A stretch of 64,000 nt of DNA from Patescibacteria group bacterium (GTDB taxonomy: Bacteria; Patescibacteriota; Patescibacteriia; JAXHNJ01), in NCBI GenBank assembly GCA_041649715.1, contig JBAZMP010000001.1, positions 82,741 to 146,740 of the forward strand, written 5' to 3'. Shown one piece after another: positions 1 through 7,484 of this stretch (positions within the stretch are counted from its first letter, which is position 1; each line of letters begins with the position of its first letter). The notes under the pieces are model-generated. The model saw nothing but the letters and a program-made list of their open reading frames with translations, searched no databases and had not been told where the DNA came from. The position numbers and the translations under genes are program-made.

Positions 1-12
1 GAGGCAGATGGT

Positions 13-89
13 GGGCGCGTAGCTCAGTTGGTTAGAGCGCGTCACTGATAATGACGAGGTCATAGGTTCGATTCCTATCGCGCCCACCA
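13..89 (+). tRNA. tRNA-Ile, anticodon GAT; CCA encoded
   Basis: Cloverleaf folded by eye: acceptor gggcgcg/cgcgccc, anticodon loop ctGATaa, T-arm ggttcgattcc, terminal cca. Confidence 0.88.
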
Positions 90-116
90 TTTGCCTCTTA
101 ATAGCGTCACTGACTC

Positions 117-228
117 GTCCCGCACCAAATGCCTGTGAAAATTTGCCTGGGTAGCTCAGTGGTAGAGCGAAGGACTGAAAATCCTTGCGTCGCCAGTCCG
201 ATTCTGGCCCCAGGCATTTGGTGCGGGA
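117..228. repeat. 18-bp perfect inverted repeat (tcccgcaccaaatgcctg / caggcatttggtgcggga) enclosing tRNA-Phe
   Basis: Direct reading: the left arm at 117-134 is the exact reverse complement of the right arm at 211-228. The right arm overlaps the tRNA 3' end. Confidence 0.8.
145..216 (+). tRNA. tRNA-Phe, anticodon GAA; no encoded CCA
   Basis: Acceptor gcctggg/cccaggc, D-arm agctcagtggtagagc, anticodon loop ctGAAaa, T-arm gccagtccgattctggc. Confidence 0.88.
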
Positions 229-261
229 TAAAATCCGGACTATAAATATTAAAGAAAATCC

Positions 262-297
262 TGGAGCCTGCCCCGCACTTTGAGCAAAGCGAAATAG
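262..297 (+). repeat. hairpin with the ccccgcac/gtgcgggg stem and a 16-nt loop; member of the CCCGCA-stem family
   Basis: Sequence gccccgcac tttgagcaaagcgaaata gtgcggggt. The same stem sequence appears as hairpin 2 of the element at 4670-4724. Confidence 0.6.
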
Positions 298-303
298 TGC
301 GGG

Positions 304-382
304 GTCGCCAGTCCGCCGTGAACTACTAAAGAGTTCACGACGCCATGTACCCTTTAGTGGTACATGGCGATTCTGGCCCCAG
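304..382 (+). pseudogene. tRNA-Phe 3' fragment (25 nt copy of the T-arm and acceptor 3' strand) interrupted in the T-loop by a 54-nt double-hairpin element
   Basis: gtcgccagtccg at 304-315 and attctggccccag at 370-382 are identical to the tRNA-Phe 3' part. The insert at 316-369 is ccgtgaact-actaaag-agttcacg followed by gccatgtacc-ctttagt-ggtacatggc. Confidence 0.75.
316..369 (+). repeat. double-hairpin element, copy A; loops ACTAAAG and CTTTAGT are mutually complementary
   Basis: Two adjacent perfect hairpins. Homologous copies lie at 4670-4724 and 52367-52421, with compensatory stem changes and the loops preserved. Confidence 0.8.
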
Positions 383-407
383 ACATCAACATTTTTAAAA
401 TTTTACT

Positions 408-1220
408 ATGAATAAAAAGCCTCTTATCACTTTTACCAGTGATTTTGGCGTTCAATCACAGGGCGTGGGGATGATGGAGGGAGCCGCTTTTAATATAAAT
501 CCAGAGATAAAGGTGATTCATCTAGCGCATGGCATTCCGGATTTCGATATTATCACTGGGGCGCGGATACTAGAGACAGTTTTTTATTTACCGGTCGGTT
601 TTCATGTTTGCGTGGTGGATCCCGGCGTAGGCGGGAAGAGAAAATGTTTGGCCATAAAGGTAAAAAGAGGCGATTATCTAATTGGTCCGGATAACGGCGT
701 ATTGATTCCCGCCGCCAGAAGATTAGGCGGGGTTGAAAAAGTGGCCGAGTTGCAAAATAAAAAATACATGGCCCCTTGCGTGTCTCCCATTTTTCACGGC
801 CGCGATATTTTTGCGCCGGCCGCCGCCTGGCTTTCGCGGGGAGTAAAATTAGAAGAGTTGGGGCCCATACTGGACCGGCAGGCATTGGCCGCGGCTCCCT
901 ACGAAGAAGCGACGGCCAAAGGCAATATTATTGAGGCAAGGATTATTTCCGTCAATAAATTCGGTTCAATTCATCTTAATATCACCCATCAATTATGGGG
1001 CGAGTGGAAATTGAATTTTCAAGACGTGGTCCAGCTCGAATTTGGCGAATGTAAATTGCGCCTACTGGTCGTTAATGTTTTCGGGGATGTTATGGTCGGC
1101 GAACCATTGATCATGAAAGATGATTATGGCCGAATTCAAGTTTCCATTAACCAGGGTTCATTCGCCGATGAATACCCGATTGAAATAGGGCAAAAAGTAC
1201 TAGTGAAGAAATTAAAATAA
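408..1220 (+). CDS. SAM hydroxide adenosyltransferase-like protein, DUF62 family (fluorinase/chlorinase fold)
   Basis: Motifs TSDFG, VVDPGVG, GPDNG and HGRDIFAP are typical of DUF62. Confidence 0.6.
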   Translation: MNKKPLITFTSDFGVQSQGVGMMEGAAFNINPEIKVIHLAHGIPDFDIITGARILETVFYLPVGFHVCVVDPGVGGKRKCLAIKVKRGDYLIGPDNGVLIPAARRLGGVEKVAELQNKKYMAPCVSPIFHGRDIFAPAAAWLSRGVKLEELGPILDRQALAAAPYEEATAKGNIIEARIISVNKFGSIHLNITHQLWGEWKLNFQDVVQLEFGECKLRLLVVNVFGDVMVGEPLIMKDDYGRIQVSINQGSFADEYPIEIGQKVLVKKLK

Positions 1221-1297
1221 CGGGGCGTAGCGCAGTTGGCTAGCGCGCCTGCTTTGGGAGCAGGAGGTCGCGAGTTCAAATCTCGCCGCCCCGACCA
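1221..1297 (+). tRNA. tRNA-Pro, anticodon TGG; CCA encoded
   Basis: Acceptor cggggcg/cgccccg, anticodon stem cctgc/gcagg with loop ttTGGga, T-arm gcgagttcaaatctcgc, terminal acca. Confidence 0.85.
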
Positions 1298-1306
1298 GTC
1301 ATTCTC

Positions 1307-2149
1307 ATGAAATATATATACATAATTCTCTTATTGGCAGTTTTGGGCGCAAGCCTATTTTTTGGAATAAGAGAATTTACGGCCTCTAATAATAGAAATA
1401 CAAATATTAATCCTAATACAAATATTAATCAAGGTTTCAATCAAAACACCAATCAAGCAGTTAATGCGGGCCCGGAAAATAATAATATCAATATCCCGAC
1501 GGAAGTCATTAATGCCAATATTGCGGTTGAATCGGTCCAGGGAGTTAGGCCGGAAATTACCAGGGGTAATACCGAAAAAAAGCAGGTTATCTTTACTTTT
1601 GACGCCGGATCGGGCATTCAGTCAGCGCAAAAAATATTGGACACCTTGAAAAATCATAATTTAACGGCCACTTTTTTTCTGACCGGCAAATGGATAGAAA
1701 AAAATCCGGATCTGGTGGAAAAAATGAGCGTCGCCGGCCATGAAATTTTCAACCACACTTATGATCATCCGCACCTGACCCAGATTTCCGACGCAGAAAT
1801 TGCGGATGAGCTTAAAAAAATGGATGATCTGATGCTTTATTACACTAATCAAACGACGAAACCATATTTCCGACCGCCTTACGGGGACAGGAATGCCCAT
1901 GTTGTGGAAATTGCCGGCAACCAAGGCTACACATCCGTTTTTTGGACGGTAGACGCTTTGGACTGGGAAGAAAGTACGGGTATGACCGCCGCCAAGGTTA
2001 AAGACAGAATTATTTCAAAGTTAGCGCCGGGCAACATTTACCTGATGCACGTGGGCGACAATATTACCGGCGAGATTTTGGAAGAAATGATCCAAAAAAT
2101 CCAGAATCAGGGTTACAAAATCGTCAGTCTGACCGAAGGGTTAAAATAG
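1307..2149 (+). CDS. polysaccharide deacetylase, NodB homology domain, with an N-terminal membrane anchor and an Asn-rich linker
   Basis: FTFDAG...TFFLTGKW...HEIFNHTYDHPHL deacetylase motifs. Confidence 0.7.
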   Translation: MKYIYIILLLAVLGASLFFGIREFTASNNRNTNINPNTNINQGFNQNTNQAVNAGPENNNINIPTEVINANIAVESVQGVRPEITRGNTEKKQVIFTFDAGSGIQSAQKILDTLKNHNLTATFFLTGKWIEKNPDLVEKMSVAGHEIFNHTYDHPHLTQISDAEIADELKKMDDLMLYYTNQTTKPYFRPPYGDRNAHVVEIAGNQGYTSVFWTVDALDWEESTGMTAAKVKDRIISKLAPGNIYLMHVGDNITGEILEEMIQKIQNQGYKIVSLTEGLK

Positions 2150-2195
2150 ATAAAATTGGCTTGTCATAGAGACAAATTTATGGCATGCTTATGGC

Positions 2196-3083
2196 ATGCC
2201 TGTTTTAGATTTTATCAAAGAAAATTCAAGCAGAGAGCCTGTAGGCGGTATATATAATTTTTTGCCCCCGGATTTGGACAAGATCAAAGCGATTGAAGTT
2301 GACACGTACTCGCAAAGGGCGGAGAAATTTAACGAAGAAAAGATTTTGAAGGGTAGCTTTTCCGAATTAAAACTATTTACTCCGATTTTTAACCAGGGAA
2401 AAGAAGGCAAATTGTTTTTGGAAATCGGAGGCGGTGACGGCCGTTTCGCCCTTCAATTAATGAAGCAGGGCTATAAGGTGGTGGAAACGGATATTGCTCC
2501 GGGTTCTGTTAAAAAAGCCCGCTATTTCGCAAAAAAACTGGGAGTGGCGGAGAATAACTATTTTATGGCGGTAGACGCGGAAAATCTGCCTTTTGATAGC
2601 GAGGTGTTTGACGGGGTATTTATGGTCGCTTCCCTGCACCATTTACCGGATTTCAGAAAGGCTCTAGCCGAAATTTACCGTGTGACGAAAAAAGATTCTC
2701 CGGTTTTGATCCTGCGCGAACCGGCCAGCTGGTTCCATTATGTTTTTTGGCCGATCATTGTCAGTTTCCGCGGGCTTATCAGAAGAAGGAATAAAGGCGA
2801 AGCAAAATCGCTGGCCGATGATGTGACGATGGGTTTTTCCCGCGGCAAATTAAAAAGAATATTTGCGGCCGCCGGTTTTACCGAAATAAAAATAACGCCG
2901 GTCGATTATTTGCGTAAATATAATACTTACTTTTGCTATATTTTTAACCGTCTTTTCAAAACAAATTTTTCTGAAAATACGAAAATCAACTATTTTTTGG
3001 CAAAAATAGATAAAATGATCGGCAAAATTCCCCTGATAAAAGAGTTGGCCTGGGATTGGGATTGCGTGATGTCTAAAAAATAG
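2196..3083 (+). CDS. class I SAM-dependent methyltransferase
   Basis: LEIGGGDGRF glycine-rich motif I, acidic residue after beta-2 (VETDIA), motif post-I/II. Confidence 0.65.
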   Translation: MPVLDFIKENSSREPVGGIYNFLPPDLDKIKAIEVDTYSQRAEKFNEEKILKGSFSELKLFTPIFNQGKEGKLFLEIGGGDGRFALQLMKQGYKVVETDIAPGSVKKARYFAKKLGVAENNYFMAVDAENLPFDSEVFDGVFMVASLHHLPDFRKALAEIYRVTKKDSPVLILREPASWFHYVFWPIIVSFRGLIRRRNKGEAKSLADDVTMGFSRGKLKRIFAAAGFTEIKITPVDYLRKYNTYFCYIFNRLFKTNFSENTKINYFLAKIDKMIGKIPLIKELAWDWDCVMSKK

Positions 3084-3125
3084 GTCTTGAAAAAAAATAT
3101 ATTTCGTGGCATCCTTTAAAATAAT

Positions 3126-3478
3126 GCGGGTATAGTATAATGGCTATTACCTGCCCGACTGCTTTGACAGCAGTCAAGGCGGGCGGGTGTCAGCTTTCTC
3201 CCGCAAAATAAGGAAGCGGAGCGACTATATTTTTCGAGGATCCCGCACGCAAAATAATAGTGTTCATTAAGCGGGCATAGTATAATGGCTATTATGTCAG
3301 CTTTCCAAGCTGAAAATACGGGTTCGATTCCCGTTGCCCGCTTAATGAGTGTTATTTTTCGGGATCCTCGCAACAAGATGGATTCACTTTGTTCATCTCA
3401 TCGTTGCGGGACAAGCTGAAAATACGGGTTCTGCGCCCGAGGCGCATCCGCCTTGGGTGGAGATTCCCGTTACCCGCT
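3126..3478 (+). tRNA. split or interrupted tRNA-Gly(TCC) gene with three insertions; either intron-containing or a pseudogene
   Basis: Exon pieces 3126-3149, 3188-3198, 3412-3431 and 3462-3478 reassemble into a tRNA-Gly that is near-identical to the intact copy. The insertions are 3150-3187 (hairpin), 3199-3411 (between anticodon nt 35 and 36, ends tcccgcaa/ttgcggga) and 3432-3461 (T-loop). Confidence 0.6.
3271..3342 (+). tRNA. tRNA-Gly, anticodon TCC, discriminator U; nested inside the 213-nt insertion of the split tRNA-Gly
   Basis: Acceptor gcgggca/tgcccgc, anticodon stem tcagc/gctga with loop ttTCCaa, 4-nt variable loop, T-arm acgggttcgattcccgt. Confidence 0.85.
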
Positions 3479-3579
3479 CCAATTTTTTTCGCTTTTAATA
3501 AGACTTGTTCTGCCGTTGGCAGGGGCCCTGCCCCAAAATTATTATTTTTAACGCCCATTAAGGCGATTTTTTTGTAAAA

Positions 3580-4275
3580 TTATAACACCGACTGTAATTT
3601 CTTTTTTGCTGAATTATAAAATTTTTCTGCTATTTCATATCCAGAAAAAGATCCCCCATTCTTTAAAACACTAACGCCTAAGTTTGCCGTACCCATAAAT
3701 GGGTCTAATATGTTCATGCCAGTTCTGAAATATTTTTTTATTATAAAATCAATTAATTCTTTGGGTTCAGCACAAGGATGTTCATTTGAATGCTTATAAT
3801 TAAAATAAAGAATTTCTCCAGTTTTATATTCAATTTTTGATTTATTAAAGACCAAGATTTGATGGCAATTAGAATGTGTGTTTGAAGAAGTCAAGTAATT
3901 TTTATCAAAACCATGATTGGGTAATTCAAAGCTATTTTTTGTATTTATAAAATTAATATGCCTTGTTTCCAAAAACATGTTAGCATTAACAACGGCATAT
4001 TTTTGAATCAAGCCAGCTAGTTGAATAAACTTGTTGTTAAAAAAGATGCTATCGGCAATTTCTATAATTAATCGGCCATCTTTTTTAAGTGTTTTTGCGC
4101 ATTCTTTAATTACATTCTTCATGAAGTTGAAATATTTTTCTAATTTTAATTTGTCAGTATAGCTGCCGTAATATGTCCCTATATTGTACGGTGGGCTAAA
4201 AAAGACAATGTCAACTGATTTTGGCTTAATTTCATTCATCGATTCCGATGATTTGTTAAAAATTGTATATTTCAT
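3580..4275 (-). CDS. DNA methyltransferase, beta-class (N6-adenine or N4-cytosine); no adjacent restriction enzyme seen
   Basis: Motif IV SPPY near the N-terminus (DIVFFSPPY) and motif I FxGxG near the C-terminus (DPFMGTANLG), which is the permuted beta-class order. Confidence 0.7.
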   Translation of the reverse strand: MKYTIFNKSSESMNEIKPKSVDIVFFSPPYNIGTYYGSYTDKLKLEKYFNFMKNVIKECAKTLKKDGRLIIEIADSIFFNNKFIQLAGLIQKYAVVNANMFLETRHINFINTKNSFELPNHGFDKNYLTSSNTHSNCHQILVFNKSKIEYKTGEILYFNYKHSNEHPCAEPKELIDFIIKKYFRTGMNILDPFMGTANLGVSVLKNGGSFSGYEIAEKFYNSAKKKLQSVL

Positions 4276-4411
4276 ATTAATATCATAGCTAAAGACAGCT
4301 TATCTGTAAATCTGGCCCATAATAATCAATAGAATCACCCATAAAATATGTCATTGTTTATTCTGCGGCCTAGATAAAGACTTACTTAAAGTATGAGTAT
4401 TAACTTGTTTT

Positions 4412-4440
4412 TTGACAATAAAAGTTATTGTCCTTATAAT
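4412..4440 (+). promoter_or_regulatory. consensus sigma70-type promoter, TTGACA-17-TATAAT
   Basis: ttgaca at 4412-4417, a 17-nt spacer, and tataat at 4435-4440. Confidence 0.65.
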
Positions 4441-4446
4441 ATAAAT

Positions 4447-4576
4447 AGTTCTTAAGAGACGCTTTTTTCCAAAGCCGGGCAAACAGGTATCGTAACAGTC
4501 GCATAATATGAGGTGGTTCCAATCCACCCTGTTAGATAGCCCGGTACCCCTGCATGTCGCATGCGGGGGTTTTCTT
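4447..4576 (+). ncRNA. candidate small RNA of about 130 nt with a T-arm-like hairpin, ending at an intrinsic terminator
   Basis: Starts just downstream of the consensus promoter. Nested helices gccgggc/gcccggt and aacagg/cctgtt surround ggtggttccaatccacc. Terminator cccctgcatg-tcg-catgcggggg plus tttt at 4547-4576. No ORF. Confidence 0.45.
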
Positions 4577-4651
4577 ATGGAGTGAAAAAGGCTAAGTATT
4601 GCCAAAAGAGAATAAAATGCTTATACTTTTGATATATTGATGGGAAAATAG

Positions 4652-4736
4652 GCCGCCGTGGTGAAATTGCCGTGAACCACTAAAGGGTTCACGGCAACCC
4701 CGCACCCTTTAGTGGTGCGGGGTGGTATACACGCAA
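4652..4736 (+). pseudogene. duplicate of tRNA-Leu(TAA) nt 1-30, interrupted in the D-loop by a 55-nt double-hairpin element
   Basis: gccgccgtggtgaaattg at 4652-4669 and gtatacacgcaa at 4725-4736 are identical to positions 1-30 of the tRNA-Leu at 5011. The insert lies at 4670-4724. Confidence 0.8.
4670..4724 (+). repeat. double-hairpin element, copy B (ccgtgaacc-ACTAAAG-ggttcacgg caa ccccgcacc-CTTTAGT-ggtgcgggg)
   Basis: Same architecture and loops as the copies at 316-369 and 52367-52421. Confidence 0.8.
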
Positions 4737-4747
4737 TAATTAATATT

Positions 4748-5005
4748 ATGCATACAGTCTATATCCTTTTACTTTCGAATAAACAATTATACACTGGAAT
4801 CACTACAAATTTAATACGAAGAATAAATGAGCATAAAGAGAGAAAAAGTCCGTTTACAAAGAATCGATTGCCCGTTAAACTGATATTTTACGAAGTGTTT
4901 AACAATAAGGAAGATGCGGAAAAGAGAGAAAGATATTTTAAAACGAGTAAGGGGAAATATTCATTAAAGGCGTTACTACGACATGCATTGAGCAAATATA
5001 ATTGA
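4748..5005 (+). CDS. GIY-YIG nuclease family protein, small UPF0213/YhbQ-like; the ORF track starts at 4712 but ATG 4748 is the likely start
   Basis: VYILLLSNKQLYTGITTNLIRRINEH matches the GIY-x10-YIG...R...E motif. The upstream extension of the tracked ORF overlaps the tRNA fragment and hairpin element. Confidence 0.7.
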   Translation: MHTVYILLLSNKQLYTGITTNLIRRINEHKERKSPFTKNRLPVKLIFYEVFNNKEDAEKRERYFKTSKGKYSLKALLRHALSKYN

Positions 5006-5010
5006 TCCAT

Positions 5011-5097
5011 GCCGCCGTGGTGAAATTGGTATACACGCAAGACTTAAAATCTTGTGGGAGCAATCCCGTGTCGGTCCGAGTCCGACCGGCGGCACCA
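5011..5097 (+). tRNA. tRNA-Leu, anticodon TAA, type II with a long variable arm; CCA encoded
   Basis: Acceptor gccgccg/cggcggc, anticodon stem caaga/tcttg with loop ctTAAaa, variable arm gggagcaatccc, T-arm gtcggtccgagtccgac, terminal acca. Confidence 0.85.
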
Positions 5098-5218
5098 AAA
5101 AATAGGCCACGTAACTGATGGTCTGTTTTTTTGATATGATCCTTGACTTTAGGCGTTAGTAATGCTAAAATATATGAGTAAACAACGAATTTTGATATTA
5201 AAAAAATAAAAATATATT

Positions 5219-5635
5219 ATGACTTACGAAGAAAAAAAACAAATCTTAAACAATCATAAAAAGGAAAAAAATTATTATTACGCGATTTTGGCTCTTATTT
5301 GCCTAAATTTTATTTATGGTCTTATTGTGTCTATTCCAAAGTTTAAGGATATAAGTATGCCTGACAAAACTGATCTTGCCGGTTTTGGTCTCATCCCGGC
5401 CGGCATGGTTATAGTCGCCTTGATTATAGCCATTGGATTACAGGTATTATATTTTTATGGAATTTTACGGCTACAAGGCTGGGTGACGATATTCATGTGG
5501 ATTGGTTTTATCGGCTCAATCTTATCTTTTGACCTGGTAAACATAATCATTACAGCCGTCATATTATTCGGCTATAAAAAAGTGTTAAAAATATTCAAAT
5601 CAACGATTCCTGCTCAGCCAAAGCCACAAAGCTAA
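5219..5635 (+). CDS. hypothetical membrane protein with 3-4 transmembrane helices
   Basis: Hydrophobic segments. Preceded by a TTGACT-17-TAAAAT-like promoter around 5147-5175. Confidence 0.4.
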   Translation: MTYEEKKQILNNHKKEKNYYYAILALICLNFIYGLIVSIPKFKDISMPDKTDLAGFGLIPAGMVIVALIIAIGLQVLYFYGILRLQGWVTIFMWIGFIGSILSFDLVNIIITAVILFGYKKVLKIFKSTIPAQPKPQS

Positions 5636-5672
5636 CCATAGAAACAATTAAAACATATAATGATAAAAATCC

Positions 5673-6386
5673 ATGAAAAATAAAATCTTAATCGGTTTGT
5701 TTATTTTTTGCCTCGCTTTGATTGGCGCCGGTTGTGGAGAAAGTACCGACACTCATAATATCAATAAATCTGCAACTATCGCCAACGTGACGATTCCTTC
5801 TTCCGGAACACTCGGCCGTTTTATGGGAAAATTGGACACCCTGGTCATTGCTTCGGAGGATCTGCCGGTCGCCTACGGTCCCTATAAAGGAACTGATGAT
5901 TATCAAGACTATGGATATTATAAAGCGAGCCATTTAAAGGAAGAAGAAGAAAAAGCCGGCTATAATGAAGGTGATTTAATCCAATTATATATCGCAGATA
6001 AGATTGTCTCAGCCAATGATTATGGGTTATCAAGCGTTGATTTAAGCTTTCATGAATTTAAAGATACGGCTACGGCGGCAAAAAATTACGCTTATAATAA
6101 AGGGTATTATTTAGAGATGGGGATAAAATCATTTTCCAATATAAAAGATGAACATTTCTATTATGGAGATACGTCTAGCGAATCAAGCAATTCCCAGTAC
6201 TCAACAACTCGTTGGGGCATAAGTATTCTGATTGACAACTTGTGGGTTAATATAAATATTGATTTGCCCGCTACGGCGACTGCCACGGAAATAAACAGCA
6301 TCGTTGATAATTGGTATAAAAAAGTGGAAGTATATCAGCCAGGAACAGCCGCCGATGTGACCGCGGAAAATGCCTCCGGCATATAG
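5673..6386 (+). CDS. hypothetical lipoprotein
   Basis: Signal peptide with lipobox LIGAGC. Confidence 0.45.
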   Translation: MKNKILIGLFIFCLALIGAGCGESTDTHNINKSATIANVTIPSSGTLGRFMGKLDTLVIASEDLPVAYGPYKGTDDYQDYGYYKASHLKEEEEKAGYNEGDLIQLYIADKIVSANDYGLSSVDLSFHEFKDTATAAKNYAYNKGYYLEMGIKSFSNIKDEHFYYGDTSSESSNSQYSTTRWGISILIDNLWVNINIDLPATATATEINSIVDNWYKKVEVYQPGTAADVTAENASGI

Positions 6387-6486
6387 GATATACGCTAATA
6401 ATAATTTCCGTATAGTATTAATGTAGATATAATATTTGATATTATAAAAAACAGATCTCGAATCCAGGGTCTGTTTTATTTTATAA

Positions 6487-6918
6487 TTATATTCCTAAGG
6501 CAATAAGGATAATACCGATGGGAAACAAAGCCCAGTAAAAACTCGGGACGCCTGCAAACCAACTTTTATGCCACCAGATATCTTTATTATTTTTATTGAA
6601 TTTAGTCAAGCCGTAATGGGGATTCAGGACAAACCATAAAAAATCTTCCAAAGTCCACATCGAGATAAAGACCCCGAAAAGCAAGGCCTCTTTTTTCCAG
6701 GACCAACTGGCGAAAAACAGGGGAAAATGAAAAATAATCAGAGTGAAGAGAATGATAAAAATATGATAGCCCGTGATCGGTTTCTCCCCCATTTTCTTTT
6801 TTAGCCGGAAAGTGGGCAAGTCAGCCGCCCAGCCATGTTTGCCTTCAATTTGAACTTCCAGGGCGGCCAGCGCTAGACTCGCGGCCAAAGTAAAAAATAT
6901 TAGTGATATTATCTGCAT
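6487..6918 (-). CDS. hypothetical integral membrane protein
   Basis: Multiple hydrophobic helices. No recognisable motif. Confidence 0.4.
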   Translation of the reverse strand: MQIISLIFFTLAASLALAALEVQIEGKHGWAADLPTFRLKKKMGEKPITGYHIFIILFTLIIFHFPLFFASWSWKKEALLFGVFISMWTLEDFLWFVLNPHYGLTKFNKNNKDIWWHKSWFAGVPSFYWALFPIGIILIALGI

Positions 6919-6992
6919 ACACTAATTTTACCACAAACAAAAAAGCGGGGGAACCCGCTTTTTTGCCTTAATATGCTTTACTAATTTATTTT

Positions 6993-7484
6993 TTACAGTA
7001 TCTCCATTTTTATAACTTTAACTCCCCATTGGATCGCATCTGTCTTGGTGGGCATCCAGATATCGGCGATATATCTGCCTTTGTTGGCTGCCATGCGGTC
7101 AGTCACGGTAAAAACTTTGTCTCCGAATTTTTCCGGAAACCTAACTTTAGTGCCGAAGGGCAGATAATTATAGGCAATAATGCCATCCCGGACTTTTTCT
7201 CCCGAAGCGGTGGTAAAGGGGTCGTTGTCGCATTCTTCACGGCTTGAGGAATAAGCGGTTACCGAAAGCTTGATTATCTTCCGCGGCTGACGATTGGCAA
7301 TTTCAGGCAGTCCGGTCAAGGACTTTATTTTTTCAACCTGCCGATAATCATTTTGATTAAGGATTGATATTTCTTTAGCTTGGACTTTTTCCGTTTGCGG
7401 GAAGAACCAGCTTAATAGACTAAAAAGCGCGATGAACGCAATAATTTTTTCCGGATTAAAGACCAATCGGGCCTTCATCTTCAT
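6993..7484 (-). CDS. 3D-domain protein (MltA/YuiC-like cell-wall hydrolase fold) with an N-terminal membrane anchor
   Basis: TAYSSSREECDNDPFTTASGEKV...GTKV...VTDRMAA...DIW matches the 3D-domain conserved Asp pattern. Confidence 0.6.
   Translation of the reverse strand: MKMKARLVFNPEKIIAFIALFSLLSWFFPQTEKVQAKEISILNQNDYRQVEKIKSLTGLPEIANRQPRKIIKLSVTAYSSSREECDNDPFTTASGEKVRDGIIAYNYLPFGTKVRFPEKFGDKVFTVTDRMAANKGRYIADIWMPTKTDAIQWGVKVIKMEIL

Follow-up and report, generated by a model that had tools for sequence, protein, structure and literature searches.

The described RNAs that come closest to the locus analysed here are the stand-alone genes of trans-acting small RNAs (sRNAs), the alphaproteobacterial sRNA BjrC1505 (RF02356), and the T-arms of tRNAs together with tRNA-like RNAs. 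Stand-alone sRNA genes have their own sigma-70 consensus promoter, contain no ORF, and specify a transcript of ~130 nt with a single-stranded 5' segment, a stable hairpin body, and a Rho-independent terminator with a U tail. All of these features are seen or predicted in the candidate described below, which differs from such genes in having no detectable family, target, or chaperone context and in being found in one species only. BjrC1505 has a similar hairpin when aligned weakly over its full length (consensus GAGUGG-cUCCUGU-CCACUC-UGUU, compared with GAGGUGG-UUCCAAU-CCACCC-UGUU in the candidate), and both RNAs end in a terminator. However, the score of 13.9 bits, against a gathering threshold of 50, and the E-value of 1.3 mean that the candidate is not a member of this family; its loop also lacks the CUCC anti-Shine-Dalgarno motif, and the phylum is unrelated. 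In tRNAs, the T-arm abuts the 3' strand of the acceptor, and position 57 is a purine in a T-loop of the pattern UUCRANY. The likeness of the candidate to T-arms and tRNA-like RNAs (RF00005 and the tRNA-like module of YrlA) consists of a 5-bp stem, a 7-nt UUCNAAU loop closed by G-C, and a 7-bp terminal stem, but there is no match to the tRNA model, the loop carries C57, the spacing is wrong, a D-arm partner is lacking, and the genome has no Ro/TROVE protein.

Promoter, terminator, and extent of the candidate unit

The candidate lies in a 64,000-nt stretch of DNA, which was analysed as a whole and is referred to here as the window. It belongs to a genome of 1.1 Mb that is assembled in three contigs and is 99.9% complete, and the homologues of the neighbouring proteins are labelled Parcubacteria or Patescibacteria. 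The features of the locus are listed in Table 1. The promoter (4412-4440) matches the consensus at 12 of 12 positions and was the top site found by the promoter scan within positions 3000-6500. The stem of the terminator (4546-4570) comprises 11 bp, seven of which are G-C pairs, encloses a 3-nt loop, and is followed by TTTTCTT; all suboptimal folds within 6 kcal/mol contained it. On the plus strand between these two elements, the sole ORF beginning with ATG encodes 25 amino acids (4508-4585) and has no Shine-Dalgarno sequence, and the overlapping ORFs on the minus strand (84, 40, and 36 amino acids) had no Pfam match. A Pfam search also detected no coding remnants in the unit. The scans and the ORF and Pfam checks thus confirm the preliminary description of the locus as a perfect promoter upstream of a strong terminator, with no credible ORF. 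With a transcription start site that we infer to lie 7 nt past the -10 hexamer, the predicted transcript would be ~128-130 nt long, consisting of the 27-nt leader, the 72-nt hairpin (4474-4545), and the terminator.

Table 1. Positions of the candidate unit and adjacent features within the window
Feature	Position	Strand	Basis or description
Orphan beta-class N4/N6 DNA methyltransferase gene, divergent neighbour	3580-4275	-	27-31% GC vs 44.7% in the genome
-35 hexamer TTGACA	4412-4417	+	Promoter scan
Perfect palindrome GACAATAA-aag-TTATTGTC	4414-4432		Overlaps the -35 hexamer and the spacer
-10 hexamer TATAAT, spacer of 17 nt	4435-4440	+	Promoter scan
Predicted 5' leader of ~27 nt, unstructured, contains UUCCAA	4447-4473	+	Unpaired in centroid folds
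Predicted RNA body, bulged rod hairpin of 72 nt	4474-4545	+	-25.6 kcal/mol, z -3.23
Apical hairpin GGUGG-UUCCAAU-CCACC, with the look of a T-arm	4512-4528	+	Fold of the body
Intrinsic terminator: 11-bp stem, UCG loop, UUUUCUU tail	4546-4577	+	Terminator scan
Second promoter-like site TTGCCA-17-TATACT	4599-4627	+	Promoter scan; 24 nt before the tRNA-Leu 5' fragment

Perfect promoters of the form TTGACA-N16-18-TATAAT occur 14 times in the genome, against 0.86 expected from its composition, which is an enrichment of ~16-fold. Most of the others are followed by a Shine-Dalgarno sequence and a start codon, and one precedes a ribosomal L10 leader (RF00557, 60 bits). Two more precede short, terminator-ended, non-coding units that contain no ORF and have no Rfam match (G000:C3:4370-4569 and G000:C1:172159-172300, where G000 is the genome studied here); in these, a terminator-like hairpin follows the promoter after ~100-160 nt, and both are themselves candidate small RNA genes, so this style of gene recurs in the genome. 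Because the genome uses such promoters, as indicated by their enrichment and by the real units that the checked sites drive, the promoter at 4412 is probably active, and transcription from it is likely. Terminators of comparable strength are rare (113 in the genome, both strands together), and the probability that one would occur by chance 60-200 nt past a given promoter is therefore only ~0.007.

The palindrome with 8-bp arms that overlaps the -35 hexamer and the spacer lies at the usual place for a repressor site and is a possible operator of a dimeric repressor. Its arms recur perfectly at only one other place in the genome, inside an ATPase ORF and around a different spacer, which gives no indication of an operator regulon.

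Fold of the RNA body and comparison with known RNA classes

The body is predicted to fold into a rod consisting of the helices GCCGGGC/GCCCGGU, UAUC/GAUA, and UAACAG/CUGUUA and the apical hairpin, in which the 3' strand is paired continuously and the 5' strand is interrupted by bulges of 7, 1, and 13 nt. None of 200 shuffled sequences was as stable as the body, and this fold accounted for 39% of the ensemble; the nested helices noted previously are therefore real. The motif UUCCAA is predicted to be exposed both in the leader and in the apical loop. The body is nearly as stable when read on the minus strand (z -3.03 vs -3.23), so that the hairpin may also be a palindrome at the DNA level.

A scan of the window against Rfam 15 at the gathering thresholds, together with two scans of the locus at E ≤ 10, returned only terminator-driven noise. 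Weak matches at the locus were to NsiR1 (25 bits) and to BjrC1505, and the comparison with Rfam proposed in the preliminary description therefore placed the unit in no family above noise. Several well-known classes were also considered and rejected. 6S RNA is a rod of ~180 nt with a two-sided central bubble, whereas the body of the candidate has 72 nt and is bulged on the 5' strand only, and RF00013 was unmatched throughout the genome. A bacterial Y RNA (YrlA) was rejected because PF05731, the Ro/TROVE protein, was not found in the genome and there was no Rfam match. The tmRNA and RNase P RNA of this organism are located elsewhere (C3:202761-203151 and C1:579432-579895, respectively). A dispersed hairpin repeat (REP- or MITE-like) was rejected because the candidate is present as a single copy in its own genome, according to both BLAST and a covariance model.

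The signal recognition particle (SRP, 4.5S) RNA was rejected on structural grounds: the apical loop is a heptaloop rather than a GNRA loop, and the AGCA and domain IV motifs are missing. This comparison led to an observation on the genome as a whole, in which the SRP pathway was not detectable. The SRP RNA families had no match (RF00169 at E ≤ 10 and RF01854 at E ≤ 1), and neither the M domain of Ffh (PF02978) nor an SRP54-type GTPase was found. RF00169 matched in none of 41 genomes of the class, and PF00448, the GTPase domain of the SRP54 type in Ffh and FtsY, was found in none of the same number of class genomes and in one of 121 phylum genomes, as a weak and partial match, whereas it was recovered in 14 of 14 controls. 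Two independent six-frame motif searches of the genome (P-loop + DTAGR + TKxD) retrieved only ribosomal protein L31. If real, this would be a whole bacterial lineage without SRP; a literature search found no paper stating that SRP is absent from this lineage.

Insertion into a tRNA array and search for relatives

In the family relatives G002 and G003, the tRNA genes form a compact array in the order Ile-Phe-Pro-Gly-Leu, and the Gly-Leu gap, which is 136-165 bp long, contains nothing that resembles the candidate unit. In the genome studied here, the same gap is 1.67 kb and contains, in order, a 3' fragment of tRNA-Gly, the methyltransferase gene on the minus strand, the candidate, and a 5' fragment of tRNA-Leu with a double hairpin and a GIY-YIG gene. 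The candidate therefore sits among tRNA debris, in agreement with its earlier placement among tRNA-derived elements. Comparison of the array (window 1-7300 vs G002:C8:23447-25441 and G003:C2:510604-517873) showed that every gap of the array is filled here by inserted genes or tRNA debris, marking the array as an insertion hot spot. G002 likewise lacks the stretch 5100-6480 with its two small genes for membrane proteins or lipoproteins. The 10-nt sequence AAAATAGGCC occurs as a direct repeat at 4645-4654 and 5099-5108, on either side of the tRNA-Leu fragment, the GIY-YIG gene, and the tRNA-Leu unit, and may reflect either chance or a target duplication. The same-genus genome G001 has GIY-YIG matches at other tRNA-Leu genes, but a search of its contigs yielded neither tRNA-Gly(TCC) nor tRNA-Leu(TAA), which makes this genome uninformative on the locus.

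The AT-rich methyltransferase gene is part of the same lineage-specific insertion as the candidate. No close relative of the methyltransferase was found in 400 Patescibacteria species genomes; homologues with 60-71% identity occur on metagenomic Parcubacteria contigs, where they are always solitary, lie in varied neighbourhoods, and are twice located beside tRNA debris. The homologues at L104:2560-2960 and L106:2640-2960 adjoin tRNA genes with hairpin insertions in T-loop-like debris, which hints that the small methyltransferase travels with insertions in tRNA arrays. A 15-nt identity between the -10 region of the candidate and the PPYNI-coding stretch of the methyltransferase homologues has no in-frame extension and was judged to be a chance match.

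Two further observations concern tRNA genes elsewhere in this genome. Approximately 9.3 kb upstream of the window (G000:C1:73292-73464), ARAGORN called two tandem tRNAs with the anticodon CTA (labelled 'Pyl') that would read the amber stop codon; these suggest suppressor tRNAs, which may derive from a phage or a mobile element. The only expected tRNA for which ARAGORN made no call was tRNA-Glu(TTC). At the start of another contig (G000:C2:56-282), there is a 102-bp tandem repeat with pieces resembling the T-arm of tRNA-Glu, and the missing tRNA-Glu(TTC) gene probably lies in this unassembled repeat.

BLAST searches of 40 relatives revealed no convincing homologue of the candidate. A covariance model built from the single sequence and run on these relatives and on ~150 class genomes returned nothing beyond weak chance hits, which fell in a coding region, in a terminator, and in an apparent intron of a 16S rRNA gene. 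The last of these hits is in a class relative (L082:1380-1680, G014:C24), in which the 16S rRNA gene is interrupted directly after the conserved ...TTGTACACA by a long, structured, intron-like insertion. Homologues were likewise not found at 12 loci encoding a methyltransferase with 60-71% identity, nor in phages or plasmids, and loop-anchored pattern scans of metagenome and viral contigs produced zero hits or one chance hit in a coding sequence. A similarity to a promoter in G013 was traced to the promoter of a sugar-transferase gene. The sensitivity of BLAST is limited for elements of this kind, as a control non-coding unit of the same genome (C3:4370-4569) was also invisible in the same 40 relatives. 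Because this control was equally invisible, and because G001 lacks a findable tRNA-Gly(TCC) and tRNA-Leu(TAA), 'not found' is a weaker statement here than 'absent'. The organism has also been assembled in ENA ERZ27247363; a second assembly (L113) was 100% identical and therefore provided no population variation. A search for closer strains with the downstream lipoprotein retrieved only one homologue, with 79% identity, on a 920-bp contig.

The search for targets gave no lead. Exact complementarity between the candidate and the rest of the genome extended over 13 nt at most, which is about the level expected by chance, and predicted duplexes with neighbouring transcripts did not surpass those formed by shuffled sequences, a comparison that is not meaningful at these lengths. 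Sites with UUUGGAAAAAA in the genome are mostly in coding sequence.

Alternative readings and significance of the unit

The best reading of the locus is an orphan gene for a trans-acting sRNA of ~125-130 nt, specific to this species and carried on an insertion in the tRNA array, to which we assign a probability of roughly 50%. RNA polymerase would start at the consensus sigma-70-type promoter, which a repressor may gate through the palindrome with 8-bp arms over the -35 hexamer and the spacer, would synthesize the unstructured leader of 27 nt and the bulged rod hairpin of 72 nt, and would stop unconditionally at the strong intrinsic terminator. The RNA would then act in trans, and its exposed parts would be the leader, the bulge of 13 nt, and the apical loop of 7 nt, with UUCCAA present in both leader and loop. 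Through these parts, the RNA could base-pair with targets or be bound by a protein. The gene would be accessory; it lies with the orphan DNA methyltransferase in a species-specific insertion that separates tRNA-Gly from tRNA-Leu.

The preliminary description regarded the apical hairpin as a mimic of the T-arm and the transcript as a possible tRNA-like regulatory or processing RNA. In this reading, the acceptor-like stem (with a G1-U72 pair), the discriminator A followed by CCC, and the T-loop-like hairpin would attract tRNA enzymes, and RNase P, RNase Z, the CCA-adding enzyme, and T-loop modifiers would trim the transcript to a 73-nt mimic or decoy. The size is that of a tRNA, as the body and the next base (4474-4546) together make up 73 nt, and the GC-rich, 7-bp terminal stem is followed by A and then CCC, as in a tRNA acceptor, a feature that is not specific on its own. 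The apical hairpin has a 5-bp stem and a 7-nt loop with the pattern UUCNAAU, its location is inside a tRNA array, and the best local match in the genome, among 48 tRNAs, is to the T-arm of tRNA-Ile(TAT). However, the score of that match (26) equalled the maximum of 100 shuffles. Furthermore, the tRNA model RF00005 (gathering score, 29 bits) had no match at E ≤ 10 in searches of 851 nt and 141 nt of the locus, ARAGORN called no tRNA at 4412-4576, and a cloverleaf could not be drawn by reading the sequence. The hairpin occupies positions 39-55 of the body, not 49-65, and lies 10 nt (CUGUUAGAUA) away from the acceptor-like 3' strand; the stacked helix has 22 bp rather than the 12 bp of the acceptor/T-arm stack of tRNA; and the apical loop, UUCCAAU, has C at T-loop position 57. 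Among 70 occurrences of the exact apical 17-mer in species-representative genomes, only two are in tRNAs, and none of the 70 loci matches the candidate beyond the hairpin. The tRNA set is complete except for Glu(UUC), so there is no missing tRNA for the candidate to replace. The likeness to a T-arm is only a surface likeness, the label of tRNA mimic is accordingly corrected here, and the tRNA-like reading is quite improbable. It is extremely improbable that the unit is a 73-nt decoy in a conflict over tRNA genes, in which an RNA or DNA hairpin would imitate, with its acceptor-like stem and T-loop-like cap, the site at which the local GIY-YIG/double-hairpin elements insert into tRNA genes (T-loop position 56/57); such a decoy, expressed from a very strong promoter, would titrate the nuclease of the element or tRNA-processing enzymes, or would serve as a harmless landing site, and would have arrived with the orphan methyltransferase on one small island with a protective role.

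A structured RNA with an immediate terminator, situated upstream of genes on the same strand, is also the classic layout of an attenuator, and the unit might therefore act in cis, as a leader that gates read-through from the strong promoter into the GIY-YIG gene and tRNA-Leu by riboswitch-type attenuation or by processive antitermination. However, when the 3' arm of the terminator was blocked in constrained folding, the 5' arm stayed unpaired and the body was unchanged, and all 13,348 suboptimal structures within 6 kcal/mol retained the terminator. The absence of a mutually exclusive antiterminator in these searches points to constitutive termination, as in stand-alone sRNAs, and counts against a riboswitch or attenuator. 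There was no match to an aptamer in Rfam, and in G001 and G003, where the GIY-YIG cassette occurs at other tRNA-Leu genes, its copies have no such unit upstream. The second promoter-like site is likely to be the promoter of the downstream tRNA-Leu/GIY-YIG unit, which, having this site of its own, does not need the promoter at 4412. Together, these points make a cis-acting leader highly improbable. The unit could instead be a functionless relic, in which a strong promoter and a terminator were left adjacent after gene loss or rearrangement in the insertion-prone tRNA array; the source might have been a lost partner of the methyltransferase or of another cassette, the hairpin would be decayed palindromic or tRNA-derived mobile DNA, and the locus would perhaps be transcribed but without function. 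The locus falls within a 1.67-kb expansion of the array, whose counterparts in G002 and G003 are compact, is surrounded by tRNA halves, double hairpins, and the GIY-YIG cassette, is single-copy with no detectable relatives, and has a hairpin of similar stability on both strands. In addition, the 5' arm has the appearance of a continuous arm broken by small insertions, with a duplication of AACAG, and the arms of the terminator (CCCC-GCA/UGCGGGG) resemble the GC hairpins of the neighbouring elements. On the other hand, decaying DNA would not be expected to keep all 12 promoter positions intact and a flawless terminator; the promoter, the 27-nt leader, the single clean hairpin, and the terminator are tidily arranged, with no coding remnants detected; and the hairpin, with no other copy in the genome, is not a dispersed repeat. 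A relic of this kind is somewhat unlikely but is the main rival of the sRNA reading.

The promoter, the terminator, the absence of an ORF, the stable fold, and the lack of an antiterminator thus support a promoter-to-terminator small RNA, as originally proposed, as far as the sequence can show; the transcription of the orphan sRNA gene, its action in trans, and any target are inferred. An RNA found in a single species opens no new question by itself, and its value is as a clean candidate for the mapping of metatranscriptomes. If expressed, it would be another strongly promoted, uncatalogued small RNA in the ultra-small Patescibacteria, which have few known regulators, and would indicate that small insertions in tRNA arrays can carry such genes.
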